From Stramenopiles sp. TOSAG23-6 (taxonomy: Eukaryota): a stretch of DNA of 34,728 bases. Below, one piece after another: positions 1 through 26,430 of this stretch; the stretch's first letter is position 1, and each line of letters begins with the position of its first letter. The notes beneath the pieces were generated by a model. It searched no databases. It had not been told where the DNA came from and saw nothing but the letters and a program-made list of their open reading frames with translations. The stretch is taken from assembly GCA_900128565.1 (NCBI GenBank), contig LT635950.1, forward strand, positions 1 to 34,728, given 5' to 3'. The translations under genes were made by a program, and so were the position numbers.

Positions 1-143
1 ACGTTTACGCACCATCAATTTCGAATGTTTTTTTCTAGATAATCCAAATCCGATGTATTTTTTTGTTTGGTTTTTGTACGTATTTTTTTATTATAAAAAT
101 TTGTACCTAACAAAAAAAAATGACATATTTTTTTACAAAACAT

Positions 144-2735
144 TGGAGCATTGCAAGTAAGACCACCAATTGATGTATCCGTGTGTACTCAAGAATATTT
201 ACATGACCTTTATAAAAAAGATGTTAAAGTGATGTATGTTTTCATAATGAATTTTAAATTTATTTTTTTTGGTACGAAATTTTGTACCTAAACAAAGAAT
301 TTTTTTTTTGGAATATATTTTCATAATGAATTTCAATTTTTTTTTTCCGTACAATTTTTTTTTGTACTTTATGAATTTCAAAATGTAAAACATATTTTTT
401 CAAAATACATGCAATGGTTGTCTTTTGGTACAAACACTTTTCTGCCTGTTCAATTAATTGATTTGGAGTTACCACTTAAATCTCTAGATGAAAAAGACTG
501 TTCTACTACGACTACTACTAATAATAATAATAAGAAGAAGAATACAAATGATTCTACTACTATTACTACTAATAATAATACTATTACTACTACTACTAAT
601 AATAATACAAATGATTCTACTACTATTACTAATAATAATAATAATAATACAAATGATTCTACTACTACTACTACTAATAATAATAATAATACAAAGGATA
701 ATATTTTCTTAACTAAGCAATTGAATTGCAACTTAAGCGTATCATGGGACAGTGCGACTGCATCATTATTACGATTTCTGGGAATAGCAAATAGTGATAA
801 AGAGCATGGTATTATTGATGATATAGTAAACAAAACTGTTGATCAAAACAAATTTCATAATTATTATTCTGAAAATCGGTATGAAAATATCTGGTCTAAA
901 AAGCTTCGTACCATTTTAGTACAGATAGCTTGTGAAGGATCAGTAACACATACTACAAAAGTAAATGCAGCTGTTCAAGCATCAGAATTATTAGCAGGTT
1001 TATGCCCTCCACTGATGGAACGTCAACACAATATAGGTGAAAAGAATACAAACCCTAACCCCAATCATTTATCATCAAATATACGAAATACTCCAAATAA
1101 TATTTCCATAAATTATTCACCAAGTACAGATTTTACTACAAATTCAACAAAATCTTTATTATTAACACCTTTTCCACAAGTTCGTATTGGTTCTCCATTA
1201 ACTAATAAAACGAATCGAAGACGATCAAAATCTTTAAATTCAGAAAATGATCATATTAAAAAAGAAAAAACAGTTACAAAATTTGATGATGATGATTTTT
1301 CATTATCGGATAGTGGTAACAAAACTAACCATCACGAAACACCTGTTCAGTTTAGTTTATTCACTAATGATAATAATGATAATTCTACCATGAATGATAA
1401 AAGTCGGAAACGGTTTAGCAGTGCAATGTCGAATATCTCAAATATGTCAATGGAAAGTGATGTAGTTCAAATTGCTAGAGAGCAGTACGTTTTCATCATA
1501 ANTATTTTTTTTNAGAGTCTCTATGCTTTTTCATCATTAATTTTAAATGTATTTATTCATTTTTTTATAACATGAACTTTGGAATGTAACATATTTTTTC
1601 ACAATACATATACAGTAAAGGTATCATCAATGAAGAGGAACTTGACCAAGTTGTAGAGGCAGACCGTCGATGTAGTATTAATGACAACATAGATGGAATG
1701 AAACCAATACACTTATTACATGAATCAGACCAATTAAATGAGTCTTTAGAAGTGAATAATAAATTTCAAAAAAACAATTTAAAATATGAAAAACAAATTG
1801 TACCACCGACTCCACCGCCAACAACAACACGTCCACCACCACCAAGACTTCAAAAAAATGGTATTTCTTTTTCTGGTATCACAATTCGATGGCCTGATGT
1901 TTTAGGTGCAACACAATATGAAGTTCAAATTGGTCATCGATATATGTACGTTTTTCATCATTTAATTTCAAATTTATTATTTTTGTACTGAATCCAAAAG
2001 AATTCAAAAGTTACAAAAACTAACAAATGTTCAATTTGACATTTTTTTCCATAGTTCATTGGGGGTTGGCGTACAGCTGGTGGGGTAAGTAGTATAACAG
2101 CTGCAGCATTTGATAAAGATGATGCAATGAATAATACAGAATTCGATACGAAGGATGATGATAATATATCGAATTCTTTAGTACATTCGCATACCACTCC
2201 AACACGAAATACAGAAAACATACAAAACACACAAAAAACTCTAAAAAACTCTAAAAAAAAAAGTTCGATTACAAGAGCAACCAGTATAACAATAAATACA
2301 TTTTTAATACGTGGTCACTTATTAGAACGAGGGCGTAAGTACATTTGTCGCGTACGAGCTTTTTCAGTATTAGGTGGTTGGAGTGATTATAGCCGAGCAA
2401 GTGACGTCATTGCTTATGAAGGTTTTCCAATACCTGCACCACCAGCTAAAACAATTATTATTCCAGTTTCTCCAAAGGATGACACTGAAAAAATTCAGAT
2501 TTCATTAGGTACGAAACTTCGTACATATCAGCCCAAGTCTAAAGATCAAACAGAAAATAAGAAAAATAATAAAGTAACAACTTCATCTGAAGAACAGGAT
2601 AGCAAAACCCTAACCATAAGACAAACAAATAATAACAGCCCGAATAAAGATGATTCAAATAGTATCAATATTTCAGGTGACGTAAGTGATAGCGGATATA
2701 GCGAATTTGATGAAGATGCAATTCTTGATTTTTAA
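144..2735 (+). CDS. PDZ/FN3 protein, 3' part (copy 1). Exons 144-233, 411-1484, 1610-1945, 2060-2735
   Basis: ORFs 409..1575, 1698..1991 and 2127..2735 are joined in frame by GT-AT introns. FN3 motif spans the last two exons. Thr/Asn low-complexity tract present. Confidence 0.72.
234..410 (+). other. Putative GT-AT intron (177 nt, phase 2)
   Basis: gtg at|GTATGTTTTCATAATG...CATATTTTTTCAAAATACAT|g caa. The next downstream AG (468) is out of phase. Confidence 0.78.
503..692 (+). repeat. Coding (ACT)n/(AAT)n trinucleotide minisatellite encoding Thr/Asn runs
   Basis: Repeated aatacaaatgattctactactattactaataat units encoding NTNDSTTITNNN. Confidence 0.9.
1485..1609 (+). other. Putative GT-AT intron (125 nt, phase 2)
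   Basis: gag ca|GTACGTTTTCATCAT...CATATTTTTTCACAATACAT|a tac carries the 20-nt 3' motif. An in-frame CAG lies 6 nt further (1615), so canonical use is possible here. Confidence 0.65.
1946..2059 (+). other. Putative GT-AT intron (114 nt, phase 2)
   Basis: tat at|GTACGTTTTTCATCAT...ACTAAC...CATTTTTTTCCATAGTTCAT|t ggg. The TAG ending at 2054 would frameshift. The AT ending at 2059 gives FN3-like YEVQIGHRYIGGW. Confidence 0.8.
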
Positions 2736-2925
2736 TACGCTTCTTAATAAAACAATATTATCAATATCATATGTATTTTATTAGTTTTATTATGGCTGCC
2801 CAATCAAAGGTATATATTACCTATGACCCACTCAATATATAACGTATATAACTCAAAATATAATAGTGAAAACTTTCTGTATAGAAATAAGTTTCTATGG
2901 AACCCTGTGTAAAATTGATAGTCAT

Positions 2926-3126
2926 TCAATAAGTGCTAAAGTTACGAAAGCGAAAGCTTGGCATTAAACTCTTTGGTTGTTGAGGCTCACTTTCATGAGC
3001 TTCTAATTTCTTTGTTTTAATTAATGTTTTCGTTTTGGAAGGTGTTTCCATCGAAACAATACCAAAATAAAGACCAATTCCTATTAAAACAACAATACTA
3101 AATACTAGTGTTTTAAGACCAAACAT
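2926..3126 (-). CDS. Small putative single-pass membrane or secreted protein (66 aa from ATG)
   Basis: ATG in an A-rich context followed by hydrophobic LVFSIVVLIGIGLYFGIV and a polar tail. No recognised family. Copies at 13498-13698 +, 20679-20879 -, 31603-31803 +. Confidence 0.35.
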   Translation of the reverse strand: MFGLKTLVFSIVVLIGIGLYFGIVSMETPSKTKTLIKTKKLEAHESEPQQPKSLMPSFRFRNFSTY

Positions 3127-3457
3127 TTTTTTGACACTATTCGTCAAGAAATTATTAGATGAATCTCTCTATTAGTAAAATTATTGTAGTATAGTAGTGT
3201 ATCAATATGTAATACAGTGTATAGTCGTATATATAGTAGTACTGAATAGTAGTATATAGGATGAGGTAGTCTTTAATTTAACGCCGAGAGAAAAAAGAAA
3301 ATCACCGGATCTGAAAAAATACTTTTTTAAATACGGACTAGGGTTAGGGCTGGCATTTCCACGAAAAAAGTTTCAAAAAACATCACGAGTGGGTACCCCG
3401 AAGTATACTGCAAATTGTGTACTAGCACTAAGTTTTCTAAAGTATTCGTTTACACAA

Positions 3458-4620
3458 ATGGCATTACAATCAAATAAAATCTCAAAAGAGAATGATTCAT
3501 TACAATCAAATAAAATCTCAAAAGAGAATGATTCAAGTTTCCCACGTCCTCCTCTGCCACATGTAAAGTTACAAACTTCGTCTGCTACAGTCATAGTTTG
3601 CTTACATGGGGGTCATATTACCTCTTGGACGCTAAATGGCAGTGAAATTCTCTTTCTTAGTGAAAAAGCGGTGTTCAAACCTCCAAAAGCAATTCGTGGT
3701 GGAATACCTATATGCTTCCCTCAATTTAGTGATTGTGGACCAATGAAGAAAAGTCATGGGTTTGCACGGACGTTGACATGGACTCATGATAGTGACATCA
3801 TACAACATAGAAATGATAAAGACGAAATAACTTCATGTTCAACTTCGTTGTCTCTTTCCACATTTGTAAAAAGTTGGCCTTACAAGTATAACTTAAAAAT
3901 GCATATTTCAATTACTGAAAACACTTTACAACAAGATTTAATTGTAACAAACAATGGAAAACAAAAATTTGAGTTTACTGCTGTAATTTTACCTTCAATG
4001 ATTTTTTAATTTTTAATTTAAGATTTTCCAAATCTAATATTTCATATATTTTATTGGATACATCATTATCATACAGGCTCTTCATACATATTTTCGTCTA
4101 AACACCAATGCTACAAAGGTTAATGGATTACTTGGATGTACATATTTGGATTCCTTGGATAATCGAACACGAAAAACAGAAAGTGAAAAAGAAATTACAA
4201 TTGAAAATGAGATGGATCGGATTTATCTAAATGCACCTTCAAATATTATTTTACAAGACGATACAACTTGTATCAATGTGTTTTCGGATCATTCATCGAA
4301 TACAAATAATACACAAGGATTTCGTGATGGTGTATTGTGGAATCCTTGGATTGAAAAATCAAAACGCATGTTGGTTTTTCTTACATTTAAAATTATGGTT
4401 AGGGTTAGGGGTTACCCCTCATTTTTTTTTCTACGAAATTTTTACCTAACAAATTTTAAACTTTAAACATATTTTTGTACAAAACATGACTGATTTAAAT
4501 GATGATGAATATCATAATATGATATGTTACGAAGTCGCTCAAATAAATAATAAAATTGTGCTTGACGTTGGCGAAGAGTGGAAAGGATCACAAAAAATTG
4601 TTGTTTCGAAAGTGAAATAA
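3458..4620 (+). CDS. Glucose-6-phosphate 1-epimerase (D-hexose-6-phosphate mutarotase, aldose 1-epimerase family), 316 aa. Exons 3458-3982, 4077-4369, 4488-4620
   Basis: Family motifs LHGGHITSW, LFLSEKAVFKPPKAIRGGIPICFPQF, HGFAR, FTA|ALHTYF, EMDRIY, WNPWIEKSKRM|TDLNDDEYHNMICYE and GEEWKG. Confidence 0.93.
3464..3535 (+). repeat. Perfect 36-bp tandem duplication (LQSNKISKENDS x2)
   Basis: ttacaatcaaataaaatctcaaaagagaatgattca occurs twice in tandem. Confidence 0.95.
3983..4076 (+). other. Canonical GT-AG intron (94 nt, phase 0) in epimerase
   Basis: gct|GTAATT...CTAAT...TACAG|gct restores the conserved FTAALHTYF. Confidence 0.9.
4370..4487 (+). other. Non-canonical GT-AT intron (118 nt, phase 2) in epimerase
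   Basis: cgc at|GTTGGTTTTT...CCTAAC...CATATTTTTGTACAAAACAT|g act gat restores KRMTDLNDDEY. No usable AG acceptor. Confidence 0.87.
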
Positions 4621-4703
4621 ATTTATAATTTTTAAAGTCATAATATTGTGTTTTTTGAAAATATTTCATCCATTGGGAGGGTTACGTAGGGTTTTATAAT
4701 TTT

Positions 4704-7263
4704 TTAATCATTATATTGTGTTTTTTGAAAATATTTCATCCATTGAGTTGAACAGCCTCGAGCATTATTGATAATTTTTGTCTTTTGTTTCGTTCTTTGA
4801 CGTTTATGTTTTGCATTTGCTAGTTTGATCTTTGCTAAATTATCATCAAATTTGCTTTTTTTATTTCGTGTTTTTTTACTTTGTCGTGGTACTGCCGGAT
4901 GTCGACTTTTTAAATTATGTGGTACTAAAATTACCTTTTTGTTTTTTTTCTCTTTTCCATTTTGATTTGATGTACTATTTAATGTACTATTTAATTCTCT
5001 ACGAATTGAAGTCTTGGTGTCGTATTTCGTTTTTTCTTCATCGCTCTCATCGTCTGTGACTAATACTTCTTTCAAACCTCGATCAAATAATTCCGATTTC
5101 CTTTCAAATTCTTTTTGTCGTGCAACTCGACGAGGATGCGGTGCTAACTTAGATCCAAGTTGATTTGCTAATAAATAAACATCACCACGCTCCCCACTGC
5201 CAAATGTACAACTTGGTGCTCTTTTAAATCGGGAGTCAAAATGTGAAACAACTTTATCAGGAAAATTTGCAGTTGTTGTTTCAGAATATGATGTAGACAC
5301 ACATATTTTGTGAAAAAATATGCCAAAAAAAAACAAAAATTCGTTAGGTATATAAAATTTGATACAAAAAAAATAATTTCGAAATTCATAATAAAAACAT
5401 ACCCATAGAATTATGAATTACTCGATATAAATCGTCTCTATCTGCAGCACCAAAATCATGATCACATGAAGATTTTCGACGTTTTGCTGCTGCATTATCA
5501 AAAGTTGATGTTACAATTGTAGAGTCGTGCTGATCACTTTTATCTATAAACTGAACAGTATTTAAAACATTTGACAATTTCTCACAATCTTCTCGACTTG
5601 ATTTTCCAAAATCAACACGAGAGGGTGTTCGAAAGCGTGAGTTATGTGTAGTGTAAAATACTTTATGGTAATCAATACTATCATTCACTTGAGACATATC
5701 CTGTGGTAATAAAGCACCTAAATCATTGTGTCGTTTATAAATATCAGATCGTTTTGATTTTCCAAAATCAACAGACGGTGGATTAGGTACACGTGAATTA
5801 TGTTTGGTATAGAATACCTTATTATAATCAACAGAATCACCAAACTCTGACATATCACGAGGTCGAAGTCCACCAAGCAGATTTGCTTGTTTTAACATAT
5901 CATCTCTTGTTGAAGCACCAAAATCAACAGACGGTGGATTAGGTACACGTGAATTATGTTTGGTATAGAATACCTTATTATAATCAACAGAATCACCAAA
6001 CTCTGACATATCACGAGGTCGAAGTCCACCAAGTAGATTTGCATGTTTTAACATCTCTTCTCGGCTTGAAGCACCAAAATCAACACGTGAGGGTGTTCGA
6101 AAACGTGAGTTATGTTCCGTTGTAAACGCTTTATTATAATCTATGGAGTCATTGAACTCTGACATATCTCTAGGTAGTAATGCTCCTAAATCATTATTAC
6201 GAAATTTTATGTCGTCTCGTTGTGAAACACCAAAATCAACACGAGAGGGTGTTCGAAAGCGTGAGTTATGTGTAGTGTAAAATACTTTATGGTAATCAAC
6301 ACTATCATTCACTTGAGACTTATCCTGTGGTAATAAAGCACCTAAATCATTGTGTCGTTTATAAATATCAGATCTTTTTGATTTTCCAAAATCAACAGAT
6401 GGTGGATTAGGTACACGTGAATTATGTTTTGTGTAGAATACCTTATTATAGTCAACTGAATCAATTTCGTCGGATTTATCAATCACACGAGCACCAGGCA
6501 TGCCTGTGGCTAATTTCGCTGCAGAAATTCTTGAAGATGCTCCAAAATCAACACGTGATGGTGTTCGAAAACGTGAGTTATGTTCCGTTGTAAACGCTTT
6601 ATTATAATCTATGGAATCCCCGAATTCTGACATATCTCTAGGTAATGTTTGTTCTAATTCATTGTGTCGTTTATAAATATCAGATCGTTTTGATTTTCCA
6701 AAATCAACAGACGGTGGATTAGGTACACGTGAATTATGTTTGGTATAGAATACCTTATTATAATCAACAGAATCACCAAACTCTGACATATCACGAGGTC
6801 GAAGTCCACCAAGCAGATTTGCTTGTTTTAACATATCATCTCTTGTTGAAGCACCAAAATCAACAGACGGTGGATTAGGTACACGTGAATTATGTTTGGT
6901 ATAGAATACCTTATTATAATCAACAGAATCACCAAACTCTGACATATCACGAGGTCGAAGTCCACCAAGCAGATTTGCATGTTTTAACATATCATCTCGA
7001 CTAGAGGCACCAAAATCCACAGAAGGGGCATTCGGTGTTCGAGATTCTGAATATGTCACTCGTTTTTTGGTGTTTTTGGAAGAAGAGGCTTGTTCTGAAA
7101 AAAAATGTTTTAACTTTTCATCTGCCAACTGTCCTTTTCGTGTTCTTTCATCCAGAGATTTTTTGTAATTGGTTTGTGCAGACTTTGTACGCCTTGCTAT
7201 TGACTCTCTTTCATGCCTTGGGAATGTTTTGTTTGTATCTGGTGACGAATTTGGGCGATTCAT
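4704..7263 (-). CDS. 52-aa tandem-repeat protein (819 aa). Exons 7263-5403, 5302-4704. Function unknown, possibly cytoskeletal or ciliary
   Basis: 625-aa ORF with DFG motifs every 156 bp, joined to the 210-aa ORF by a GT-AT intron. An 11th degenerate repeat spans the junction. Confidence 0.82.
5303..5402 (-). other. Putative GT-AT intron (100 nt, phase 1) in repeat-protein gene (11222-11321 + in copy 2)
   Basis: atg g|GTATGTTTTTATTATG...CCTAAC...CATATTTTTTCACAAAATAT|gt gtg gives a 50-aa DFG-to-TFG unit, against 33 aa with the first in-frame AAG. Confidence 0.78.
5449..7017 (-). repeat. Coding tandem array, 10 x 156 bp
   Basis: In copy 2 the GAT of DFG falls at 9607, 9763, 9919, 10075, 10231, 10387, 10543, 10699, 10855, 11011 and 11167, an exact 156-nt period. 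Confidence 0.95.
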
Positions 7264-7549
7264 TTCGTACTTTTTCCGTGAACACAGAGGGAAATAATAG
7301 CACTTGGTGCCAGCAGAAGTAATTTTTTTTTTGAAACGTTATCCTTATTTTTTAACGTACGATACAATTTTTAGATTTCGATTGATTTCGTGTTTTCAAA
7401 CATCATTTTTGTGACTGAGTCTTTCTTTGACGTGTCCGGTGGTGGCCAAACACAAAACAATGTCTACTTTTTAGTCCACAATATCATGATCATACTACGT
7501 TGTACATTGTTCAAAGGTAATTAACATAATTGTATTTAACACAACAATT

Positions 7550-8284
7550 ATGTTGGATATCCGTTTGTATAGTAAAAAAAAGAAAAAAAAGAAACGTGGA
7601 GCAAGAGGAAAGAAGAAAAAAACAGGTCCAAAGTCAAAAAGTCAACAAAACTCTCAAATTGTATCCCAGCAACATCCTGCAAACAAAACAGCATTAATTT
7701 CAGATCACATTTTACCATTACATAATTTATATGATGATAAACATGTGTGTTCTAAACCCAATTCAAATATATATTTGGTTGATAAAAACAAAATCGTGTC
7801 CAAAGCAGTAAAAAAAGAGAGTTTTTCAAAGAATCAAACCTCTGTAAAAAAAGAGAGTTTTTCAAAGAATCAAACCTCAGTAAAAAAAGAGAGTTTTTCA
7901 AAGAATCAAACCTCCTTGACTGAAAAAAAAACATATATTGTCTAGAGAGGAACCTTCTTATTCTACTTCATCATATTCTCTCGACTGGAAAACAACACAT
8001 AGTATATCTCAAAAACATCACTATAACTGGGCATCCAAACACAAGATATTACATACTATTGACACTATTGACAACAAAACTGTAGATTTGTTGAACGAGA
8101 ATAAATGGCATTACGAAAGTAATGCACCTAAAAATACAATTGTAATTGAAAAGCCTAACCCTATCGATGTTGATGTATTTGATACTGATTTAGAAGTAAT
8201 TGGTGATACACTACGTACATTAACACAACAAGATTCATATTGTTTGCCTTCTTTGTTATTACAAGATTGTTCGTTAGGTACAAA
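7550..8284 (+). CDS. Lys-rich hypothetical protein, frameshifted near 7931-7945 and 3'-truncated by the unit end (may be a pseudogene or sequencing error)
   Basis: ORFs 7550..7945 and 7938..8339 overlap in adjacent frames next to an A9 run. Basic NLS-like N-terminus and 3x VKKESFSKNQTS. Copies at 8340-9074 -, 25303-26092 +, 26390-27179 -. Confidence 0.45.
7808..7915 (+). repeat. 3 x 36-bp coding tandem repeat (VKKESFSKNQTS)
   Basis: gtaaaaaaagagagtttttcaaagaatcaaacctcN three times. Confidence 0.95.
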
Positions 8285-8298
8285 ATTTGGTACAGATT

Positions 8299-8299
<1 letters not shown>

Positions 8300-8334
<35 letters not shown>
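8300..8334 (+). repeat. Poly(A) tract at unit end
   Basis: About 35 consecutive A, adjacent to both inversion junctions. Confidence 0.95.
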
Positions 8335-8337
<3 letters not shown>

Positions 8338-9360
8338 AATTTGTACCTAACGAACAATCTTGTAATAACAAAGAAGGCAAACAATATGAATCTTGTTGTG
8401 TTAATGTACGTAGTGTATCACCAATTACTTCTAAATCAGTATCAAATACATCAACATCGATAGGGTTAGGCTTTTCAATTACAATTGTATTTTTAGGTGC
8501 ATTACTTTCGTAATGCCATTTATTCTCGTTCAACAAATCTACAGTTTTGTTGTCAATAGTGTCAATAGTATGTAATATCTTGTGTTTGGATGCCCAGTTA
8601 TAGTGATGTTTTTGAGATATACTATGTGTTGTTTTCCAGTCGAGAGAATATGATGAAGTAGAATAAGAAGGTTCCTCTCTAGACAATATATGTTTTTTTT
8701 TCAGTCAAGGAGGTTTGATTCTTTGAAAAACTCTCTTTTTTTACTGAGGTTTGATTCTTTGAAAAACTCTCTTTTTTTACAGAGGTTTGATTCTTTGAAA
8801 AACTCTCTTTTTTTACTGCTTTGGACACGATTTTGTTTTTATCAACCAAATATATATTTGAATTGGGTTTAGAACACACATGTTTATCATCATATAAATT
8901 ATGTAATGGTAAAATGTGATCTGAAATTAATGCTGTTTTGTTTGCAGGATGTTGCTGGGATACAATTTGAGAGTTTTGTTGACTTTTTGACTTTGGACCT
9001 GTTTTTTTCTTCTTTCCTCTTGCTCCACGTTTCTTTTTTTTCTTTTTTTTACTATACAAACGGATATCCAACATAATTGTTGTGTTAAATACAATTATGT
9101 TAATTACCTTTGAACAATGTACAACGTAGTATGATCATGATATTGTGGACTAAAAAGTAGACATTGTTTTGTGTTTGGCCACCACCGGACACGTCAAAGA
9201 AAGACTCAGTCACAAAAATGATGTTTGAAAACACGAAATCAATCGAAATCTAAAAATTGTATCGTACGTTAAAAAATAAGGATAACGTTTCAAAAAAAAA
9301 ATTACTTCTGCTGGCACCAAGTGCTATTATTTCCCTCTGTGTTCACGGAAAAAGTACGAA

Positions 9361-11920
9361 ATGAATCGCCCAAATTCGTCACCAGATACAAACAAAACAT
9401 TCCCAAGGCATGAAAGAGAGTCAATAGCAAGGCGTACAAAGTCTGCACAAACCAATTACAAAAAATCTCTGGATGAAAGAACACGAAAAGGACAGTTGGC
9501 AGATGAAAAGTTAAAACATTTTTTTTCAGAACAAGCCTCTTCTTCCAAAAACACCAAAAAACGAGTGACATATTCAGAATCTCGAACACCGAATGCCCCT
9601 TCTGTGGATTTTGGTGCCTCTAGTCGAGATGATATGTTAAAACATGCAAATCTGCTTGGTGGACTTCGACCTCGTGATATGTCAGAGTTTGGTGATTCTG
9701 TTGATTATAATAAGGTATTCTATACCAAACATAATTCACGTGTACCTAATCCACCGTCTGTTGATTTTGGTGCTTCAACAAGAGATGATATGTTAAAACA
9801 AGCAAATCTGCTTGGTGGACTTCGACCTCGTGATATGTCAGAGTTTGGTGATTCTGTTGATTATAATAAGGTATTCTATACCAAACATAATTCACGTGTA
9901 CCTAATCCACCGTCTGTTGATTTTGGAAAATCAAAACGATCTGATATTTATAAACGACACAATGAATTAGAACAAACATTACCTAGAGATATGTCAGAAT
10001 TCGGGGATTCCATAGATTATAATAAAGCGTTTACAACGGAACATAACTCACGTTTTCGAACACCATCACGTGTTGATTTTGGAGCATCTTCAAGAATTTC
10101 TGCAGCGAAATTAGCCACAGGCATGCCTGGTGCTCGTGTGATTGATAAATCCGACGAAATTGATTCAGTTGACTATAATAAGGTATTCTACACAAAACAT
10201 AATTCACGTGTACCTAATCCACCATCTGTTGATTTTGGAAAATCAAAAAGATCTGATATTTATAAACGACACAATGATTTAGGTGCTTTATTACCACAGG
10301 ATAAGTCTCAAGTGAATGATAGTGTTGATTACCATAAAGTATTTTACACTACACATAACTCACGCTTTCGAACACCCTCTCGTGTTGATTTTGGTGTTTC
10401 ACAACGAGACGACATAAAATTTCGTAATAATGATTTAGGAGCATTACTACCTAGAGATATGTCAGAGTTCAATGACTCCATAGATTATAATAAAGCGTTT
10501 ACAACGGAACATAACTCACGTTTTCGAACACCCTCACGTGTTGATTTTGGTGCTTCAAGCCGAGAAGAGATGTTAAAACATGCAAATCTACTTGGTGGAC
10601 TTCGACCTCGTGATATGTCAGAGTTTGGTGATTCTGTTGATTATAATAAGGTATTCTATACCAAACATAATTCACGTGTACCTAATCCACCGTCTGTTGA
10701 TTTTGGTGCTTCAACAAGAGATGATATGTTAAAACAAGCAAATCTGCTTGGTGGACTTCGACCTCGTGATATGTCAGAGTTTGGTGATTCTGTTGATTAT
10801 AATAAGGTATTCTATACCAAACATAATTCACGTGTACCTAATCCACCGTCTGTTGATTTTGGAAAATCAAAACGATCTGATATTTATAAACGACACAATG
10901 ATTTAGGTGCTTTATTACCACAGGATATGTCTCAAGTGAATGATAGTATTGATTACCATAAAGTATTTTACACTACACATAACTCACGCTTTCGAACACC
11001 CTCTCGTGTTGATTTTGGAAAATCAAGTCGAGAAGATTGTGAGAAATTGTCAAATGTTTTAAATACTGTTCAGTTTATAGATAAAAGTGATCAGCACGAC
11101 TCTACAATTGTAACATCAACTTTTGATAATGCAGCAGCAAAACGTCGAAAATCTTCATGTGATCATGATTTTGGTGCTGCAGATAGAGACGATTTATATC
11201 GAGTAATTCATAATTCTATGGGTATGTTTTTATTATGAATTTCGAAATTATTTTTTTTGTATCAAATTTTATATACCTAACGAATTTTTGTTTTTTTTTG
11301 GCATATTTTTTCACAAAATATGTGTGTCTACATCATATTCTGAAACAACAACTGCAAATTTTCCTGATAAAGTTGTTTCACATTTTGACTCCCGATTTAA
11401 AAGAGCACCAAGTTGTACATTTGGCAGTGGGGAGCGTGGTGATGTTTATTTATTAGCAAATCAACTTGGATCTAAGTTAGCACCGCATCCTCGTCGAGTT
11501 GCACGACAAAAAGAATTTGAAAGGAAATCGGAATTATTTGATCGAGGTTTGAAAGAAGTATTAGTCACAGACGATGAGAGCGATGAAGAAAAAACGAAAT
11601 ACGACACCAAGACTTCAATTCGTAGAGAATTAAATAGTACATTAAATAGTACATCAAATCAAAATGGAAAAGAGAAAAAAAACAAAAAGGTAATTTTAGT
11701 ACCACATAATTTAAAAAGTCGACATCCGGCAGTACCACGACAAAGTAAAAAAACACGAAATAAAAAAAGCAAATTTGATGATAATTTAGCAAAGATCAAA
11801 CTAGCAAATGCAAAACATAAACGTCAAAGAACGAAACAAAAGACAAAAATTATCAATAATGCTCGAGGCTGTTCAACTCAATGGATGAAATATTTTCAAA
11901 AAACACAATATAATGATTAA
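9361..11920 (+). CDS. 52-aa tandem-repeat protein (copy 2). Exons 9361-11221, 11322-11920
   Basis: Inverted copy of 4704-7263. Confidence 0.8.
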
Positions 11921-12003
11921 AAAATTATAAAACCCTACGTAACCCTCCCAATGGATGAAATATTTTCAAAAAACACAATATTATGACTTTAAAAATTATA
12001 AAT

Positions 12004-13166
12004 TTATTTCACTTTCGAAACAACAATTTTTTGTGATCCTTTCCACTCTTCGCCAACGTCAAGCACAATTTTATTATTTATTTGAGCGACTTCGTAACAT
12101 ATCATATTATGATATTCATCATCATTTAAATCAGTCATGTTTTGTACAAAAATATGTTTAAAGTTTAAAATTTGTTAGGTAAAAATTTCGTAGAAAAAAA
12201 AATGAGGGGTAACCCCTAACCCTAACCATAATTTTAAATGTAAGAAAAACCAACATGCGTTTTGATTTTTCAATCCAAGGATTCCACAATACACCATCAC
12301 GAAATCCTTGTGTATTATTTGTATTCGATGAATGATCCGAAAACACATTGATACAAGTTGTATCGTCTTGTAAAATAATATTTGAAGGTGCATTTAGATA
12401 AATCCGATCCATCTCATTTTCAATTGTAATTTCTTTTTCACTTTCTGTTTTTCGTGTTCGATTATCCAAGGAATCCAAATATGTACATCCAAGTAATCCA
12501 TTAACCTTTGTAGCATTGGTGTTTAGACGAAAATATGTATGAAGAGCCTGTATGATAATGATGTATCCAATAAAATATATGAAATATTAGATTTGGAAAA
12601 TCTTAAATTAAAAATTAAAAAATCATTGAAGGTAAAATTACAGCAGTAAACTCAAATTTTTGTTTTCCATTGTTTGTTACAATTAAATCTTGTTGTAAAG
12701 TGTTTTCAGTAATTGAAATATGCATTTTTAAGTTATACTTGTAAGGCCAACTTTTTACAAATGTGGAAAGAGACAACGAAGTTGAACATGAAGTTATTTC
12801 GTCTTTATCATTTCTATGTTGTATGATGTCACTATCATGAGTCCATGTCAACGTCCGTGCAAACCCATGACTTTTCTTCATTGGTCCACAATCACTAAAT
12901 TGAGGGAAGCATATAGGTATTCCACCACGAATTGCTTTTGGAGGTTTGAACACCGCTTTTTCACTAAGAAAGAGAATTTCACTGCCATTTAGCGTCCAAG
13001 AGGTAATATGACCCCCATGTAAGCAAACTATGACTGTAGCAGACGAAGTTTGTAACTTTACATGTGGCAGAGGAGGACGTGGGAAACTTGAATCATTCTC
13101 TTTTGAGATTTTATTTGATTGTAATGAATCATTCTCTTTTGAGATTTTATTTGATTGTAATGCCAT
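12004..13166 (-). CDS. Glucose-6-phosphate 1-epimerase (copy 2)
   Basis: Inverted copy of 3458-4620. Confidence 0.88.
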
Positions 13167-13888
13167 TTGTGTAAACGAATACTTTAGAAAACTTAGTGCT
13201 AGTACACAATTTGCAGTATACTTCGGGGTACCCACTCGTGATGTTTTTTGAAACTTTTTTCGTGGAAATGCCAGCCCTAACCCTAGTCCGTATTTAAAAA
13301 AGTATTTTTTCAGATCCGGTGATTTTCTTTTTTCTCTCGGCGTTAAATTAAAGACTACCTCATCCTATATACTACTATTCAGTACTACTATATATACGAC
13401 TATACACTGTATTACATATTGATACACTACTATACTACAATAATTTTACTAATAGAGAGATTCATCTAATAATTTCTTGACGAATAGTGTCAAAAAAATG
13501 TTTGGTCTTAAAACACTAGTATTTAGTATTGTTGTTTTAATAGGAATTGGTCTTTATTTTGGTATTGTTTCGATGGAAACACCTTCCAAAACGAAAACAT
13601 TAATTAAAACAAAGAAATTAGAAGCTCATGAAAGTGAGCCTCAACAACCAAAGAGTTTAATGCCAAGCTTTCGCTTTCGTAACTTTAGCACTTATTGAAT
13701 GACTATCAATTTTACACAGGGTTCCATAGAAACTTATTTCTATACAGAAAGTTTTCACTATTATATTTTGAGTTATATACGTTATATATTGAGTGGGTCA
13801 TAGGTAATATATACCTTTGATTGGGCAGCCATAATAAAACTAATAAAATACATATGATATTGATAATATTGTTTTATTAAGAAGCGTA

Positions 13889-16800
13889 TTAAAAATCAAG
13901 AATTGCATCTTCATCAAATTCGCTATATCCGCTATCACTTACGTCACCTGAAATATTGATACTATTTGAATCATCTTTATTCGGGCTGTTATTATTTGTT
14001 TGTCTTATGGTTAGGGTTTTGCTATCCTGTTCTTCAGATGAAGTTGTTACTTTATTATTTTTCTTATTTTCTGTTTGATCTTTAGACTTGGGCTGATATG
14101 TACGAAGTTTCGTACCTAATGAAATCTGAATTTTTTCAGTGTCATCCTTTGGAGAAACTGGAATAATAATTGTTTTAGCTGGTGGTGCAGGTATTGGAAA
14201 ACCTTCATAAGCAATGACGTCACTTGCTCGGCTATAATCACTCCAACCACCTAATACTGAAAAAGCTCGTACGCGACAAATGTACTTACGCCCTCGTTCT
14301 AATAAGTGACCACGTATTAAAAATGTATTTATTGTTATACTGGTTGCTCTTGTAATCGAACTTTTTTTTTTAGAGTTTTTTAGAGTTTTTTGTGTGTTTT
14401 GTATGTTTTCTGTATTTCGTGTTGGAGTGGTATGCGAATGTACTAAAGAATTCGATATATTATCATCATCCTTCGTATCGAATTCTGTATTATTCATTGC
14501 ATCATCTTTATCAAATGCTGCAGCTGTTATACTACTTACCCCACCAGCTGTACGCCAACCCCCAATGAACTATGGAAAAAAATGTCAAATTGAACATTTG
14601 TTAGTTTTTGTAACTTTTGAATTCTTTTGGATTCAGTACAAAAATAATAAATTTGAAATTAAATGATGAAAAACGTACATATATCGATGACCAATTTGAA
14701 CTTCATATTGTGTTGCACCTAAAACATCAGGCCATCGAATTGTGATACCAGAAAAAGAAATACCATTTTTTTGAAGTCTTGGTGGTGGTGGACGTGTTGT
14801 TGTTGGCGGTGGAGTCGGTGGTACAATTTGTTTTTCATATTTTAAATTGTTTTTTTGAAATTTATTATTCACTTCTAAAGACTCATTTAATTGGTCTGAT
14901 TCATGTAATAAGTGTATTGGTTTCATTCCATCTATGTTGTCATTAATACTACATCGACGGTCTGCCTCTACAACTTGGTCAAGTTCCTCTTCATTGATGA
15001 TACCTTTACTGTATATGTATTGTGAAAAAATATGTTACATTCCAAAGTTCATGTTATAAAAAAATGAATAAATACATTTAAAATTAATGATGAAAAAGCA
15101 TAGAGACTCTNAAAAAAAATANTTATGATGAAAACGTACTGCTCTCTAGCAATTTGAACTACATCACTTTCCATTGACATATTTGAGATATTCGACATTG
15201 CACTGCTAAACCGTTTCCGACTTTTATCATTCATGGTAGAATTATCATTATTATCATTAGTGAATAAACTAAACTGAACAGGTGTTTCGTGATGGTTAGT
15301 TTTGTTACCACTATCCGATAATGAAAAATCATCATCATCAAATTTTGTAACTGTTTTTTCTTTTTTAATATGATCATTTTCTGAATTTAAAGATTTTGAT
15401 CGTCTTCGATTCGTTTTATTAGTTAATGGAGAACCAATACGAACTTGTGGAAAAGGTGTTAATAATAAAGATTTTGTTGAATTTGTAGTAAAATCTGTAC
15501 TTGGTGAATAATTTATGGAAATATTATTTGGAGTATTTCGTATATTTGATGATAAATGATTGGGGTTAGGGTTTGTATTCTTTTCACCTATATTGTGTTG
15601 ACGTTCCATCAGTGGAGGGCATAAACCTGCTAATAATTCTGATGCTTGAACAGCTGCATTTACTTTTGTAGTATGTGTTACTGATCCTTCACAAGCTATC
15701 TGTACTAAAATGGTACGAAGCTTTTTAGACCAGATATTTTCATACCGATTTTCAGAATAATAATTATGAAATTTGTTTTGATCAACAGTTTTGTTTACTA
15801 TATCATCAATAATACCATGCTCTTTATCACTATTTGCTATTCCCAGAAATCGTAATAATGATGCAGTCGCACTGTCCCATGATACGCTTAAGTTGCAATT
15901 CAATTGCTTAGTTAAGAAAATATTATCCTTTGTATTATTATTATTATTAGTAGTAGTAGTAGTAGAATCATTTGTATTATTATTATTATTATTAGTAATA
16001 GTAGTAGAATCATTTGTATTATTATTAGTAGTAGTAGTAATAGTATTATTATTAGTAGTAATAGTAGTAGAATCATTTGTATTCTTCTTCTTATTATTAT
16101 TATTAGTAGTAGTCGTAGTAGAACAGTCTTTTTCATCTAGAGATTTAAGTGGTAACTCCAAATCAATTAATTGAACAGGCAGAAAAGTGTTTGTACCAAA
16201 AGACAACCATTGCATGTATTTTGAAAAAATATGTTTTACATTTTGAAATTCATAAAGTACAAAAAAAAATTGTACGGAAAAAAAAAATTGAAATTCATTA
16301 TGAAAATATATTCCAAAAAAAAAATTCTTTGTTTAGGTACAAAATTTCGTACCAAAAAAAATAAATTTAAAATTCATTATGAAAACATACATCACTTTAA
16401 CATCTTTTTTATAAAGGTCATGTAAATATTCTTGAGTACACACGGATACATCAATTGGTGGTCTTACTTGCAATGCTCCAATGTTTTGTAAAAAAATATG
16501 TCATTTTTTTTTGTTAGGTACAAATTTTTATAATAAAAAAATACGTACAAAAACCAAACAAAAAAATACATCGGATTTGGATTATCTAGAAAAAAACATT
16601 CGAAATTGATGGTGCGTAAACGTACATAGATGCTAATGCTATGGCTGTAGGTAATGTAATTGGAATACATCCAGTGATATTCATCATAGTTGAACTATTT
16701 GTTTTTGAATGTATCGTTTTAGATGTAGATCCCAAATTCAACATGCTTGAACGTCTTAATTTTGGTGTTGTATTCTTACTTGTATTTAACATACTTGAAC

Positions 16801-17753
16801 TTCTTGGTTTTGGTGTTGTAGTATTAGTATTAGTATAATGTGAAAATGTATCATCATTGGTATGCAAATTCGATATTAAGTCACTATTGAATTTTGTAAC
16901 TAAAGATTTTTTTGTACCTAATGAATTTCGAATTTGTTGTGACTCTTCACTTAAACCTGCTCGTCGCATTGCTAACATCTCCATAGCATCTCGCATTTGT
17001 TTAAGCTCAATCTCTTGTGCAGCAATTCGATTTTCTTGAGCAATAATGCGCAATTGTAAAGCTTTTTGCATTTGACACGTGTCATTACTATTAGGGTTAT
17101 CGATGTTTGAGTCAGGAGAATGAAATGAAAGTTGAGAATTTCGAGAGTACCGTGGTGATATTGGTGGTGTTGTTGGTGGTGATGGCATTTGTTTCATTAT
17201 CTCTTGTGGTGACTTATTTAGTGTATTTCGTGTTTTATACGACATCGTAGAATCATTGTCCATCATTAAAGTAGTAAATTCAATAGTCCGTTGATACATA
17301 TTTCGTTCATGTATTGTGGAAAAATATGTTGTATTTGAAAATTGTCAATAAAAAATCCTTAGGTACAAAATGTGGCGCAAAAATATAAATAAAAATTGTT
17401 ACGTACGAAATTTACGAAATTTCATACGAAAAATACATAAATTTAAAATTCATGATGAAAACGTACATGTAAATACTCCACAATATCTGCAAATTTCCAA
17501 TGTAAAACTTTTGTACTATCAATTGTTTGTATCCACATTCCAGGTGATACACCCTTTTTCTTTAACTCATTAATTCTATTGAGTACAGTAGTCACTGTGT
17601 TATTTCGTGTTTTATTACTAGGGTTAGGATTTCCCACAATTTTTGTAGGCGTTTTTTTGCCTTCATTAAAATTTTCAATCTGCGCTCCTCTTCTATGCAA
17701 ACCACACTTTAATTGCAAACCCAATGCACCAGAAGGGACATTAACAATAACAG
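13889..17753 (-). CDS. PDZ-domain and fibronectin type III domain protein, 5'-partial. Exons 17753-17467, 17308-16626, 16480-16391, 16213-15140, 15014-14679, 14564-13889 (most complete copy)
   Basis: N-terminal VIVNVPSGALGLQL...GVSPGMWIQTIDSTKVLHWKFADIVEYLH|ERNMYQRTIEF resembles a PDZ fold (GLGL-type loop, alphaB, betaF). C-terminal ITIRWPDVLGATQYEVQ...GGW...LERGRKYICRVRAFSVLGGWSDYS matches the FN3 pattern. Five GT-AT introns join all ORF segments in frame to TAA. Domain calls are by eye. Confidence 0.75.
16481..16625 (-). other. Putative GT-AT intron (145 nt, phase 2); positions 1-143 are this intron minus its first GT
   Basis: tct at|GTACGTTTAC...CCTAAC...CATATTTTTTTACAAAACAT|t gga gives ALAS-I-GALQ. 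An in-frame AAG 18 nt downstream is an alternative acceptor. Confidence 0.72.
17309..17466 (-). other. Putative non-canonical GT-AT intron (158 nt, phase 0)
   Basis: Minus strand cat|GTACGTTTTCATCATG...CATATTTTTCCACAATACAT|gaa joins EYLH to ERNMYQ within the PDZ-like domain. The internal AAG (17358) is out of frame. Confidence 0.8.
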
Positions 17754-17896
17754 ACGTTTACGCACCATCAATTTCGAATGTTTTTTTCTAGATAATCCAA
17801 ATCCGATGTATTTTTTTGTTTGGTTTTTGTACGTATTTTTTTATTATAAAAATTTGTACCTAACAAAAAAAAATGACATATTTTTTTACAAAACAT

Positions 17897-20488
17897 TGGA
17901 GCATTGCAAGTAAGACCACCAATTGATGTATCCGTGTGTACTCAAGAATATTTACATGACCTTTATAAAAAAGATGTTAAAGTGATGTATGTTTTCATAA
18001 TGAATTTTAAATTTATTTTTTTTGGTACGAAATTTTGTACCTAAACAAAGAATTTTTTTTTTGGAATATATTTTCATAATGAATTTCAATTTTTTTTTTC
18101 CGTACAATTTTTTTTTGTACTTTATGAATTTCAAAATGTAAAACATATTTTTTCAAAATACATGCAATGGTTGTCTTTTGGTACAAACACTTTTCTGCCT
18201 GTTCAATTAATTGATTTGGAGTTACCACTTAAATCTCTAGATGAAAAAGACTGTTCTACTACGACTACTACTAATAATAATAATAAGAAGAAGAATACAA
18301 ATGATTCTACTACTATTACTACTAATAATAATACTATTACTACTACTACTAATAATAATACAAATGATTCTACTACTATTACTAATAATAATAATAATAA
18401 TACAAATGATTCTACTACTACTACTACTAATAATAATAATAATACAAAGGATAATATTTTCTTAACTAAGCAATTGAATTGCAACTTAAGCGTATCATGG
18501 GACAGTGCGACTGCATCATTATTACGATTTCTGGGAATAGCAAATAGTGATAAAGAGCATGGTATTATTGATGATATAGTAAACAAAACTGTTGATCAAA
18601 ACAAATTTCATAATTATTATTCTGAAAATCGGTATGAAAATATCTGGTCTAAAAAGCTTCGTACCATTTTAGTACAGATAGCTTGTGAAGGATCAGTAAC
18701 ACATACTACAAAAGTAAATGCAGCTGTTCAAGCATCAGAATTATTAGCAGGTTTATGCCCTCCACTGATGGAACGTCAACACAATATAGGTGAAAAGAAT
18801 ACAAACCCTAACCCCAATCATTTATCATCAAATATACGAAATACTCCAAATAATATTTCCATAAATTATTCACCAAGTACAGATTTTACTACAAATTCAA
18901 CAAAATCTTTATTATTAACACCTTTTCCACAAGTTCGTATTGGTTCTCCATTAACTAATAAAACGAATCGAAGACGATCAAAATCTTTAAATTCAGAAAA
19001 TGATCATATTAAAAAAGAAAAAACAGTTACAAAATTTGATGATGATGATTTTTCATTATCGGATAGTGGTAACAAAACTAACCATCACGAAACACCTGTT
19101 CAGTTTAGTTTATTCACTAATGATAATAATGATAATTCTACCATGAATGATAAAAGTCGGAAACGGTTTAGCAGTGCAATGTCGAATATCTCAAATATGT
19201 CAATGGAAAGTGATGTAGTTCAAATTGCTAGAGAGCAGTACGTTTTCATCATAANTATTTTTTTTNAGAGTCTCTATGCTTTTTCATCATTAATTTTAAA
19301 TGTATTTATTCATTTTTTTATAACATGAACTTTGGAATGTAACATATTTTTTCACAATACATATACAGTAAAGGTATCATCAATGAAGAGGAACTTGACC
19401 AAGTTGTAGAGGCAGACCGTCGATGTAGTATTAATGACAACATAGATGGAATGAAACCAATACACTTATTACATGAATCAGACCAATTAAATGAGTCTTT
19501 AGAAGTGAATAATAAATTTCAAAAAAACAATTTAAAATATGAAAAACAAATTGTACCACCGACTCCACCGCCAACAACAACACGTCCACCACCACCAAGA
19601 CTTCAAAAAAATGGTATTTCTTTTTCTGGTATCACAATTCGATGGCCTGATGTTTTAGGTGCAACACAATATGAAGTTCAAATTGGTCATCGATATATGT
19701 ACGTTTTTCATCATTTAATTTCAAATTTATTATTTTTGTACTGAATCCAAAAGAATTCAAAAGTTACAAAAACTAACAAATGTTCAATTTGACATTTTTT
19801 TCCATAGTTCATTGGGGGTTGGCGTACAGCTGGTGGGGTAAGTAGTATAACAGCTGCAGCATTTGATAAAGATGATGCAATGAATAATACAGAATTCGAT
19901 ACGAAGGATGATGATAATATATCGAATTCTTTAGTACATTCGCATACCACTCCAACACGAAATACAGAAAACATACAAAACACACAAAAAACTCTAAAAA
20001 ACTCTAAAAAAAAAAGTTCGATTACAAGAGCAACCAGTATAACAATAAATACATTTTTAATACGTGGTCACTTATTAGAACGAGGGCGTAAGTACATTTG
20101 TCGCGTACGAGCTTTTTCAGTATTAGGTGGTTGGAGTGATTATAGCCGAGCAAGTGACGTCATTGCTTATGAAGGTTTTCCAATACCTGCACCACCAGCT
20201 AAAACAATTATTATTCCAGTTTCTCCAAAGGATGACACTGAAAAAATTCAGATTTCATTAGGTACGAAACTTCGTACATATCAGCCCAAGTCTAAAGATC
20301 AAACAGAAAATAAGAAAAATAATAAAGTAACAACTTCATCTGAAGAACAGGATAGCAAAACCCTAACCATAAGACAAACAAATAATAACAGCCCGAATAA
20401 AGATGATTCAAATAGTATCAATATTTCAGGTGACGTAAGTGATAGCGGATATAGCGAATTTGATGAAGATGCAATTCTTGATTTTTAA
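17897..20488 (+). CDS. PDZ/FN3 protein, 3' part (copy 3)
   Basis: Copy of 144-2735. Confidence 0.65.
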
Positions 20489-21210
20489 TACGCTTCTTAA
20501 TAAAACAATATTATCAATATCATATGTATTTTATTAGTTTTATTATGGCTGCCCAATCAAAGGTATATATTACCTATGACCCACTCAATATATAACGTAT
20601 ATAACTCAAAATATAATAGTGAAAACTTTCTGTATAGAAATAAGTTTCTATGGAACCCTGTGTAAAATTGATAGTCATTCAATAAGTGCTAAAGTTACGA
20701 AAGCGAAAGCTTGGCATTAAACTCTTTGGTTGTTGAGGCTCACTTTCATGAGCTTCTAATTTCTTTGTTTTAATTAATGTTTTCGTTTTGGAAGGTGTTT
20801 CCATCGAAACAATACCAAAATAAAGACCAATTCCTATTAAAACAACAATACTAAATACTAGTGTTTTAAGACCAAACATTTTTTTGACACTATTCGTCAA
20901 GAAATTATTAGATGAATCTCTCTATTAGTAAAATTATTGTAGTATAGTAGTGTATCAATATGTAATACAGTGTATAGTCGTATATATAGTAGTACTGAAT
21001 AGTAGTATATAGGATGAGGTAGTCTTTAATTTAACGCCGAGAGAAAAAAGAAAATCACCGGATCTGAAAAAATACTTTTTTAAATACGGACTAGGGTTAG
21101 GGCTGGCATTTCCACGAAAAAAGTTTCAAAAAACATCACGAGTGGGTACCCCGAAGTATACTGCAAATTGTGTACTAGCACTAAGTTTTCTAAAGTATTC
21201 GTTTACACAA

Positions 21211-22373
21211 ATGGCATTACAATCAAATAAAATCTCAAAAGAGAATGATTCATTACAATCAAATAAAATCTCAAAAGAGAATGATTCAAGTTTCCCACGT
21301 CCTCCTCTGCCACATGTAAAGTTACAAACTTCGTCTGCTACAGTCATAGTTTGCTTACATGGGGGTCATATTACCTCTTGGACGCTAAATGGCAGTGAAA
21401 TTCTCTTTCTTAGTGAAAAAGCGGTGTTCAAACCTCCAAAAGCAATTCGTGGTGGAATACCTATATGCTTCCCTCAATTTAGTGATTGTGGACCAATGAA
21501 GAAAAGTCATGGGTTTGCACGGACGTTGACATGGACTCATGATAGTGACATCATACAACATAGAAATGATAAAGACGAAATAACTTCATGTTCAACTTCG
21601 TTGTCTCTTTCCACATTTGTAAAAAGTTGGCCTTACAAGTATAACTTAAAAATGCATATTTCAATTACTGAAAACACTTTACAACAAGATTTAATTGTAA
21701 CAAACAATGGAAAACAAAAATTTGAGTTTACTGCTGTAATTTTACCTTCAATGATTTTTTAATTTTTAATTTAAGATTTTCCAAATCTAATATTTCATAT
21801 ATTTTATTGGATACATCATTATCATACAGGCTCTTCATACATATTTTCGTCTAAACACCAATGCTACAAAGGTTAATGGATTACTTGGATGTACATATTT
21901 GGATTCCTTGGATAATCGAACACGAAAAACAGAAAGTGAAAAAGAAATTACAATTGAAAATGAGATGGATCGGATTTATCTAAATGCACCTTCAAATATT
22001 ATTTTACAAGACGATACAACTTGTATCAATGTGTTTTCGGATCATTCATCGAATACAAATAATACACAAGGATTTCGTGATGGTGTATTGTGGAATCCTT
22101 GGATTGAAAAATCAAAACGCATGTTGGTTTTTCTTACATTTAAAATTATGGTTAGGGTTAGGGGTTACCCCTCATTTTTTTTTCTACGAAATTTTTACCT
22201 AACAAATTTTAAACTTTAAACATATTTTTGTACAAAACATGACTGATTTAAATGATGATGAATATCATAATATGATATGTTACGAAGTCGCTCAAATAAA
22301 TAATAAAATTGTGCTTGACGTTGGCGAAGAGTGGAAAGGATCACAAAAAATTGTTGTTTCGAAAGTGAAATAA
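21211..22373 (+). CDS. Glucose-6-phosphate 1-epimerase (copy 3)
   Basis: Direct copy of 3458-4620. Confidence 0.88.
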
Positions 22374-22456
22374 ATTTATAATTTTTAAAGTCATAATATT
22401 GTGTTTTTTGAAAATATTTCATCCATTGGGAGGGTTACGTAGGGTTTTATAATTTT

Positions 22457-25016: not shown

Positions 25017-26051
25017 TTCGTACTTTTTCCGTGAACACAGAGGGAAATAATAGCACTTGGTGCCAGCAGAAGTAATTTTTTTTTTGAAACGTTATCCTTA
25101 TTTTTTAACGTACGATACAATTTTTAGATTTCGATTGATTTCGTGTTTTCAAACATCATTTTTGTGACTGAGTCTTTCTTTGACGTGTCCGGTGGTGGCC
25201 AAACACAAAACAATGTCTACTTTTTAGTCCACAATATCATGATCATACTACGTTGTACATTGTTCAAAGGTAATTAACATAATTGTATTTAACACAACAA
25301 TTATGTTGGATATCCGTTTGTATAGTAAAAAAAAGAAAAAAAAGAAACGTGGAGCAAGAGGAAAGAAGAAAAAAACAGGTCCAAAGTCAAAAAGTCAACA
25401 AAACTCTCAAATTGTATCCCAGCAACATCCTGCAAACAAAACAGCATTAATTTCAGATCACATTTTACCATTACATAATTTATATGATGATAAACATGTG
25501 TGTTCTAAACCCAATTCAAATATATATTTGGTTGATAAAAACAAAATCGTGTCCAAAGCAGTAAAAAAAGAGAGTTTTTCAAAGAATCAAACCTCTGTAA
25601 AAAAAGAGAGTTTTTCAAAGAATCAAACCTCAGTAAAAAAAGAGAGTTTTTCAAAGAATCAAACCTCCTTGACTGAAAAAAAAACATATATTGTCTAGAG
25701 AGGAACCTTCTTATTCTACTTCATCATATTCTCTCGACTGGAAAACAACACATAGTATATCTCAAAAACATCACTATAACTGGGCATCCAAACACAAGAT
25801 ATTACATACTATTGACACTATTGACAACAAAACTGTAGATTTGTTGAACGAGAATAAATGGCATTACGAAAGTAATGCACCTAAAAATACAATTGTAATT
25901 GAAAAGCCTAACCCTATCGATGTTGATGTATTTGATACTGATTTAGAAGTAATTGGTGATACACTACGTACATTAACACAACAAGATTCATATTGTTTGC
26001 CTTCTTTGTTATTACAAGATTGTTCGTTAGGTACAAAATTTGGTACAGATT

Positions 26052-26090
<39 letters not shown>

Positions 26091-26092
26091 AA

Positions 26093-26389: not shown

Positions 26390-26391
26390 TT

Positions 26392-26430
<39 letters not shown>

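Follow-up and report, generated by a model that had tools for sequence, protein, structure and literature searches.

In the window analysed here, the 34,728-nt contig LT635950.1 of Stramenopiles sp. TOSAG23-6 (GCA_900128565.1), we describe an intron, i4 (1946-2059, + strand), of a gene at 53-2735 (+ strand), in which a TAG behind a pyrimidine tract appears to be passed over for a CAT 5 nt downstream. The explanation that we favor, with a probability of about 0.7, is that i4 is a member of an introner-like family of GT-AT introns and is cut at a YAT, whereas the upstream TAG is an unused decoy. This reading is based on open reading frames, on the shared anatomy of seven look-alike introns, and on an orthologous protein, that is, on the comparison of sequences.

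The acceptor region of intron i4

Intron i4 is 114 nt long (GTACGT...TTCAT). The GTACGT that starts at 1946 is preceded by the codon fragment AT, and the donor is thus in phase 2. At the 3′ end, seven T (2042-2048) are followed by CC, by the TAG at 2052-2054, and by TTCAT, which ends at 2059; the ideal-looking acceptor ending at 2054 that the preliminary description had pointed out is present as described. A branch-point-like CTAAC was read at 2020-2024 (+ strand). From its putative branch A at 2023, the distance is 31 nt to the G of the TAG and 36 nt to the T of the CAT. In the frame analysis, donor 1946 combined with a cut after 2054 (offset -5) left just 13 open codons on the left and 12 on the right, and the same donor combined with a cut after 2059 gave a continuous frame with 118 open codons before the junction and 200 after it. 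These results agree with the earlier statements that the use of this TAG causes a frameshift and that a cut at 2059 keeps the frame. The proposed 20-nt spacing was recovered as well, as a 21-nt conserved 3′ module at 2039-2059 (+ strand; ACAT, a T-run, and YAT at the cut) aligned without gaps to the six other intron ends in an end-anchored alignment. In this alignment, the AG of i4 sits at the position where the family consensus reads CACAAT, and it looks like a substitution inside the conserved module.

The preliminary description had named a dominant junction at 2054/2055 with a different, in-phase donor as the observation that would speak against a bypass. The frameshift is real from donor 1946, but an in-phase canonical pair had been missed: GT1950 and TAG2054 remove 105 nt and leave the frame open, and this weak GT is the only donor with which the TAG is in frame. 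The reading frames, the family anatomy, and the orthologue P0123 nevertheless support the proposal that the TAG is passed over for the CAT and that the acceptor is not the first AG scanned. The TAG (2052-2054, + strand) is most likely a decoy that would be bypassed in favor of the CAT at 2059.

A full HMMER search with exon 5 returned 13 proteins at E values up to 0.001, among them P0123 (483 aa, 66% identical in the best stretch), which by its sequence is a clear orthologue of the host protein; a word-index search with the same exon among proteins of near length gave no match. P0123 was gapless across both the 1484^1610 and the 1945^2060 junctions. Computed spliced models were scored by local alignment to P0123. 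The results showed that the model with a CAT at both junctions reached a score of 377 and was gapless across both, compared with 364 for GT1950..TAG2054 at i4, 359 for CAG 1615 at i3 (the preceding intron), 346 for the model with both alternatives, and 206, with 15 stops, for GT1946..TAG2054. At i4, three additional residues would not fit into the conserved block IGYRYVGGWRTAGGVSS of P0123. At i3, only the CAT cut places IAREQ and VEADRRCSI 15 residues apart, as they are in P0123.

Intron i3 (1485-1609, + strand; 125 nt, GTACGT...ATACAT), for which frames, P0123, and repeat ends are available, presents the reverse case, with an in-frame CAG at 1613-1615, 6 nt downstream of its CAT. The open-frame check confirmed that CAT 1609 and CAG 1615 are both possible in frame, as had been noted before, and the reverse test suggested at that time favored the CAT (377 versus 359 against P0123).

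The i4 site is present four times in the window, with identical copies at 14565-14678 (- strand), 19699-19812 (+ strand), and 32670-32783 (- strand). The arms at 1-8284, 8340-16623, 17754-26240, and 26242-34728 are 100% identical or complementary, and two N at 1502 and 1514 are repeated identically in them. A 55-nt poly(A)/T-rich loop (8285-8339) and a 1.1-kb single-copy loop (16639-17738) lie between arms, and a run of N starts at 26093 at the second center. Such structures can result from whole-genome amplification, and this four-fold palindrome is most likely an artefact of chimera formation or scaffolding and not biology. Because the four copies of the site are 100% identical, N included, they provide no independent check. 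An independent seawater DNA run, X3, contained a 493-nt contig (record 2) that covers 1906-2398, including the GGGGG at 2061-2065, with four substitutions and no gaps. By reading of the frame, the three changes in exon 5 comprise two synonymous third-position changes and one Val-to-Ile change.

A family of seven look-alike introns

Seven look-alike introns were found in four genes within ~9.5 kb of unique sequence (16639-26092; 9,454 nt scanned), and their cuts were placed by motif alignment, not by frame. Together with i3 and i4, the host gene contains i1 (76-143, + strand; 68 nt, GTACGT...AAACAT) and i2 (234-410, + strand; 177 nt, GTATGT...ATACAT), both recognized by module alignment. Intron i5 (4370-4487, + strand; 118 nt, GTTGGT...AAACAT) lies in a glucose-6-phosphate 1-epimerase gene and was assigned by profile and frames, i6 (5303-5402, - strand; 100 nt, GTATGT...AAATAT, phase 1) lies in a gene with 52-aa repeats and was assigned by frames and the protein P0121, and i7 (17309-17466, - strand; 158 nt, GTACGT...ATACAT, phase 0) lies in an upstream divergent gene and was recognized by module alignment.

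All seven introns begin with GT and six of them with GTAYGT (i5 has GTTGGT), and the family start can be written as GTAYGTTTT(C)AT. Five of the seven have a (TAC)CTAAC-like motif (CTRAY or CTAAG) at a distance of 30-42 nt from the cut, and the motif search upstream of the cut found none in i2 or i3. Every member has a T-run upstream of the 3′ end, and the gapless alignment of the seven ends yielded a 21-nt module composed of ACAT, a T-run, and then approximately CACAATACAT, ending in YAT. When the 9,454 nt were scanned with a loose pattern of the module, the matches were the seven intron ends and one palindromic overlap at i6, and no others. Simpler motif searches also exceeded shuffles (37 matches versus 9.0 expected and 30 versus 16.0 expected), although these counts are inflated four-fold by the palindrome.

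The last two bases are AT in 7/7 introns, and none has the AG required of U2-type introns. The open codons to the left/right of the cut were 24/49, 36/200, 199/127, 118/200, 110/44, 199/199, and 97/200 for i1 to i7, respectively, and in all seven the GT..YAT cut represents the sole frame class of three that joins long open frames. As the cuts were placed by motif and not by frame, the chance of such agreement is ~(1/3)^7. When the borders were shifted within the limits that leave an equivalent mRNA, GT..AT was the only pair allowed by all seven introns; TG..CA was allowed in five, and AT..AC borders, allowed in only three, were rejected.

AG occurs at ~4.3% of positions in the sequence. None lies between the branch-like motif and the cut in six of the seven introns, i4 being the exception, and the sole AG of i7 falls within the branch-like motif itself. 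At the cuts of i2 and i5, no AG was found from 70 nt upstream to 40 nt downstream, and none is in reach of the i6 cut. Overall, a usable AG near the cut is missing from i2, i5, i6, and i7, and in i1 the one AG nearby (+5) is not in frame.

For i5, an epimerase profile was built from the 96 homologues of 270-310 aa among the 120 listed; the homologues stem from mixed sources, with identities of no more than 48%. Among 3,575 donor/acceptor pairs tried, 1,037 were stop-free and were scored, and the 17 best were all 118-nt removals. GT4370..AT4487 scored 312.7, which is 0.6 bits below the top row (4372/4489), a difference that is not meaningful. Because the profile fits best with exactly 118 nt removed and no AG is in reach, a cut of the GT-AT type is needed here. 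For i6, P0121 (35% identical) was gapless over the junction at residue 621, with a one-residue gap six positions upstream.

Ten runs contained parts of the stretch. Two of them shared 0.94-0.95 of the sampled words and are probably its source; the shared fraction was 0.30 for X3 and ~0.10 for each of the metatranscriptomes X6 and X7. X3, X6, X7, and X10 were mapped on 1515-5557, with the 5′ side of i3 outside. The summed depth of X3 was 24.6, 22.2, 10, and 257.8 on intron bins compared with ~1-5 on exon bins. Similarity to other copies stopped at 1609 (four X3 contigs and one X7 contig) or 1610 (three X3 contigs) and started at 1944/1946 or just after a GTACG. These end points indicate that the repeat unit is the intron bounded by GT and CAT, not by CAG 1615. 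Furthermore, in some X3 contigs the 5′ part of i4 is continuous with the 3′ part of i5, which shows that further family members exist.

In a check for transposon hallmarks, the only feature seen was a 5-nt ATGTA/TACAT symmetry that includes the exon AT, and AT precedes the GT in four of the seven copies. Thirty-one metagenome-contig loci with the 21-nt 5′ motif were inspected by eye and set aside as chance matches, none being family-like beyond the pattern. Separately, the reverse complement of the family-internal TTTCGTACCTAA motif was observed in exon 5 (2490-2523, + strand, coding) and at 8266-8290, close to where the unique sequence ends. A contig of an RNA run (X7 record 22) matches 2490-2523; the match is bordered by 5′ and 3′ ends of the family, which read on the opposite strand. 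Fragments of the intron family may be shared with coding sequence.

Proposed mechanism and alternative explanations

In the mechanism that we propose, an AT-rich marine eukaryote would carry many copies of an introner-like intron family, and the i4 site would be where one of these members ends on its 3′ side. A member would carry a U2-like GTAYGT, usually a (TAC)CTAAC 30-42 nt from the 3′ end, a T-run, and the 21-nt module ending in YAT, and it would be removed exactly from the G of the GT to the T of the YAT. What defines the acceptor would be either its location within the 3′ module or the YAT as such, rather than the first AG. A base change in the i4 module would have created the TAG 5 nt before the cut, and productive mRNA would skip this TAG. 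The 5′ end and the branch-like motif resemble their counterparts in major-type introns, and it is the last base that departs. We infer that a spliceosome that is less strict about the last base removes the intron from the RNA. The family as a whole would spread like a mobile element.

A more far-reaching version states that this is a transposable intron family with its own non-AG acceptor code, in which a U2-like spliceosome joins exons behind a YAT whose position within a 21-nt cis module is fixed, while ignoring a strong polypyrimidine-AG 5 nt upstream, with ordinary GT-AG introns in the same genes. We regard this version as tentative and give it rather less than an even chance. The AG at the 3′ end is among the most constant signals of eukaryotic gene expression. 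If the proposal is true, the organism would offer a natural example of an intron class for which the second catalytic step follows a relaxed last-base rule. It would also be a natural test bed for 3′ site choice by scanning, distance, or identity, as i4 has an AG 5 nt before the cut and i3 an in-frame AG 6 nt behind it, which makes both tests possible at one locus. Introner-type elements could then spread without supplying an AG, and standard gene finders, which insist on AG, would fragment the majority of the genes in this uncultured but abundant organism of the sea. A practical annotation rule would be GTAYGT ... 21-nt module ... YAT.

Several observations weigh against the GT-AT explanation. 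Joining at a non-G last base is very unusual for a U2-type spliceosome. No spliced RNA joint was found on 1515-5557, where X6 and X7, which consist of contigs, have zero depth at 2055-2189 and X10 gave no match. In addition, contigs of the RNA runs contain intron sequence (for example, X7 record 17 from 1602), which could be DNA carry-over or unspliced RNA. The orthologue support consists of one protein per junction. The seven introns share ancestry, so their AG-free 3′ regions are inherited and are not seven independent observations. Finally, GT1950..TAG2054 costs just a 3-residue insertion relative to P0123, or 13 score units.

The last of these points belongs to a reading in which splicing is canonical throughout, i4 being GT1950..TAG2054 (105 nt), i3 ending at CAG 1615, and the CATs being by-products of a repeat family. 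Both canonical alternatives are in frame and stop-free, the T7CC-TAG is a textbook acceptor, and the two lose modestly against P0123, by 13 and 18 units. However, each forces an indel in a highly conserved block of P0123, and the GTTTTT at 1950 is unlike the family donor GTAYGT. Moreover, because i1, i2, i5, i6, and i7 have no usable AG, GT-AT removal would be required anyway, and we consider canonical splicing of i3 and i4 unlikely. It might also be argued that an assembly or sequencing indel, for example in the GGGGG at 2061-2065, masks a TAG that is in frame with donor 1946. By reasoning from the sequence, one extra G would bring the TAG into frame, and the scaffold is of low quality and chimeric, with N and the four-fold palindrome. 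However, the independent X3 record 2 shows no gap over 1906-2398, and P0123 matches the sequence as it stands residue for residue, which makes such an error extremely improbable.

Two further alternatives concern the machinery. U12-type introns have a 3′ site that is selected according to its position and does not depend on AG, and their consensus is RTATCCTT at the 5′ splice site and TCCTTRAC at a branch site ~10-20 nt from the 3′ end. These introns are rare and ancient, unlike a mobile family. Removal by the minor (U12-type) spliceosome, which would tolerate non-AG ends and find the 3′ site by its distance from the branch site, is loosely suggested by the fixed-distance module with its T-run followed by CAC ~9 nt before the cut. 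However, the 5′ ends read GTAYGTTTT and not RTATCCTT, the closest branch-like motif, TACCTAAC, lies 30-42 nt from the cut, too far for U12, and only the T-run followed by CAC is found near the 3′ end; the family thus differs from U12-type introns at both the 5′ splice site and the branch site. An Rfam search gave no match in 16600-26300. A study of conserved minor introns in animals lists GT-AT, the border dinucleotides seen here, among the rare subtypes (bioRxiv 10.1101/2022.09.24.509304). On balance, removal by the minor spliceosome seems very unlikely to us. Non-spliceosomal removal guided by paired intron ends, the route taken by nonconventional introns in euglenids and in some diplonemids, also seems quite unlikely. 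Marine protists with abundant non-GT-AG introns do exist (PMC12621601), and in i2, i5, and i7 base pairing is possible between the terminal TACAT and the GTA together with the exon AT before it. However, the end pairing was not above that of shuffles: the fraction of 100 shuffles that reached the observed pairing was 0.62, 0.13, 0.75, 0.48, 0.04, 0.99, and 0.14 for i1 to i7, that is, at or below 0.05 in one of the seven. The z-scores of intron folding energy ranged from -2.3 to +1.7. Furthermore, conserved borders (GT, YAT) together with a spliceosomal-looking 5′ end and a branch motif are the opposite of the traits that define nonconventional introns. Ciliate-type, TA-bounded DNA excision was checked by hand and rejected; it introduces stops, and TAA serves as a stop codon in these genes.

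Among known systems, introners are the closest kind, and the GT-AT borders are the departure from them. Similar to the introners of Micromonas, Aureococcus, dinoflagellates, and some fungi, the family consists of look-alike introns in unrelated genes (seven in four genes over 9.5 kb), is multi-copy in environmental DNA, and has repeat-unit ends that coincide with intron borders. Introners are known to be removed as GT-AG (or GY-AG) introns, whereas the family here ends in YAT, and no clear terminal inverted repeats or target-site duplications were established for it. In the literature search, no paper was found that pairs "GT-AT" with "introners"; a prior description of this class, for example in the original 2016 single-cell study of diplonemids, is possible. 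In Fritillaria borealis, it is mainly the 5′ dinucleotide that departs from GT. The present family has a canonical 5′ end and deviates solely in its last base. Many non-GT-AG introns of F. borealis are considered to be substrates of a major-type spliceosome (PMC12621601).

The same source reports that ~97% of the introns of two hemistasiid diplonemids are noncanonical, with ends that pair, and that a transposon-like origin has been suggested for diplonemid noncanonical introns (PMC12621601). Such introns have also been predicted from single-cell genomes of marine diplonemids, the eupelagonemids (PMC12621601, PMC6221363). The present family resembles those of marine diplonemids in that introns without GT-AG borders were predicted from genomic sequence alone (PMC12621601). 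In that report, hemistasiid introns are characterized by highly variable, G/C-rich borders, extensive end pairing, and the lack of a branch motif (PMC12621601), whereas the borders of the family described here are fixed (GT, YAT), AT-rich, and unpaired.

The host gene and neighboring features

The host gene of i1 to i4 (53-2735, + strand) would comprise exons at 53-75, 144-233, 411-1484, 1610-1945, and 2060-2735, with the stop codon at 2733-2735; the start codon, and with it the beginning of the first exon at 53, is uncertain. The ATG at 409, which opens the long frame of exon 3, overlaps the CAT end of i2, and splicing would destroy it. Two short exons extend the host frame in the upstream direction, as far as a possible ATG at 53. 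The sequence that follows the i4 cut had been called FN3-like. The search against Pfam found no family, and no match to the fn3 model, in exon 4, exon 5, or P0123, whereas residues 78-128 of exon 5 locally match the multi-fn3 protein P0122 (E 1.9e-11), and the resemblance is thus retained in a weak form.

The epimerase gene also contains an ordinary intron that is not a family member, at 3983-4076 (+ strand; GT..AG, GTAATT...ACAG). The exons around it match positions 2-154 and 156-257 of the Pfam family Aldose_epim consecutively. The gene that contains i6 (5404-7263, - strand) encodes at least nine tandem 52-residue repeats, with 156-nt units at 5562-7109, and the repeats carry the motif VDFG.S.R.D / D.VDY.KVF....NSR. 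No Pfam family was found for this gene, and its only relative found was P0121, which is distant, with 35% identity over the full length.

A small open frame with a hydrophobic stretch is present at 2930-3128 (- strand), between two genes of the + strand. Contigs of RNA run X6 cover 2699-3351 around it; either the region is transcribed or the library carries DNA. At 7490-8339 (+ strand), two long open frames abut, and the frame changes at an A9 run at ~7925-7935. This change could be a homopolymer error, a frameshift, or an unrecognized intron in a lysine-rich gene. Finally, a telomere-like octamer, GGTTAGGG, was observed at 1053-1060 (- strand), 2608-2615 (- strand), 3342-3349 (+ strand), and 4397-4410 (+ strand, two overlapping). 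It is thus present 5 times per unique copy and 20 times in the window, compared with 0.16 expected for the whole window, and its sites lie in coding exons, upstream of the epimerase start codon, and, as the two overlapping copies, inside i5.

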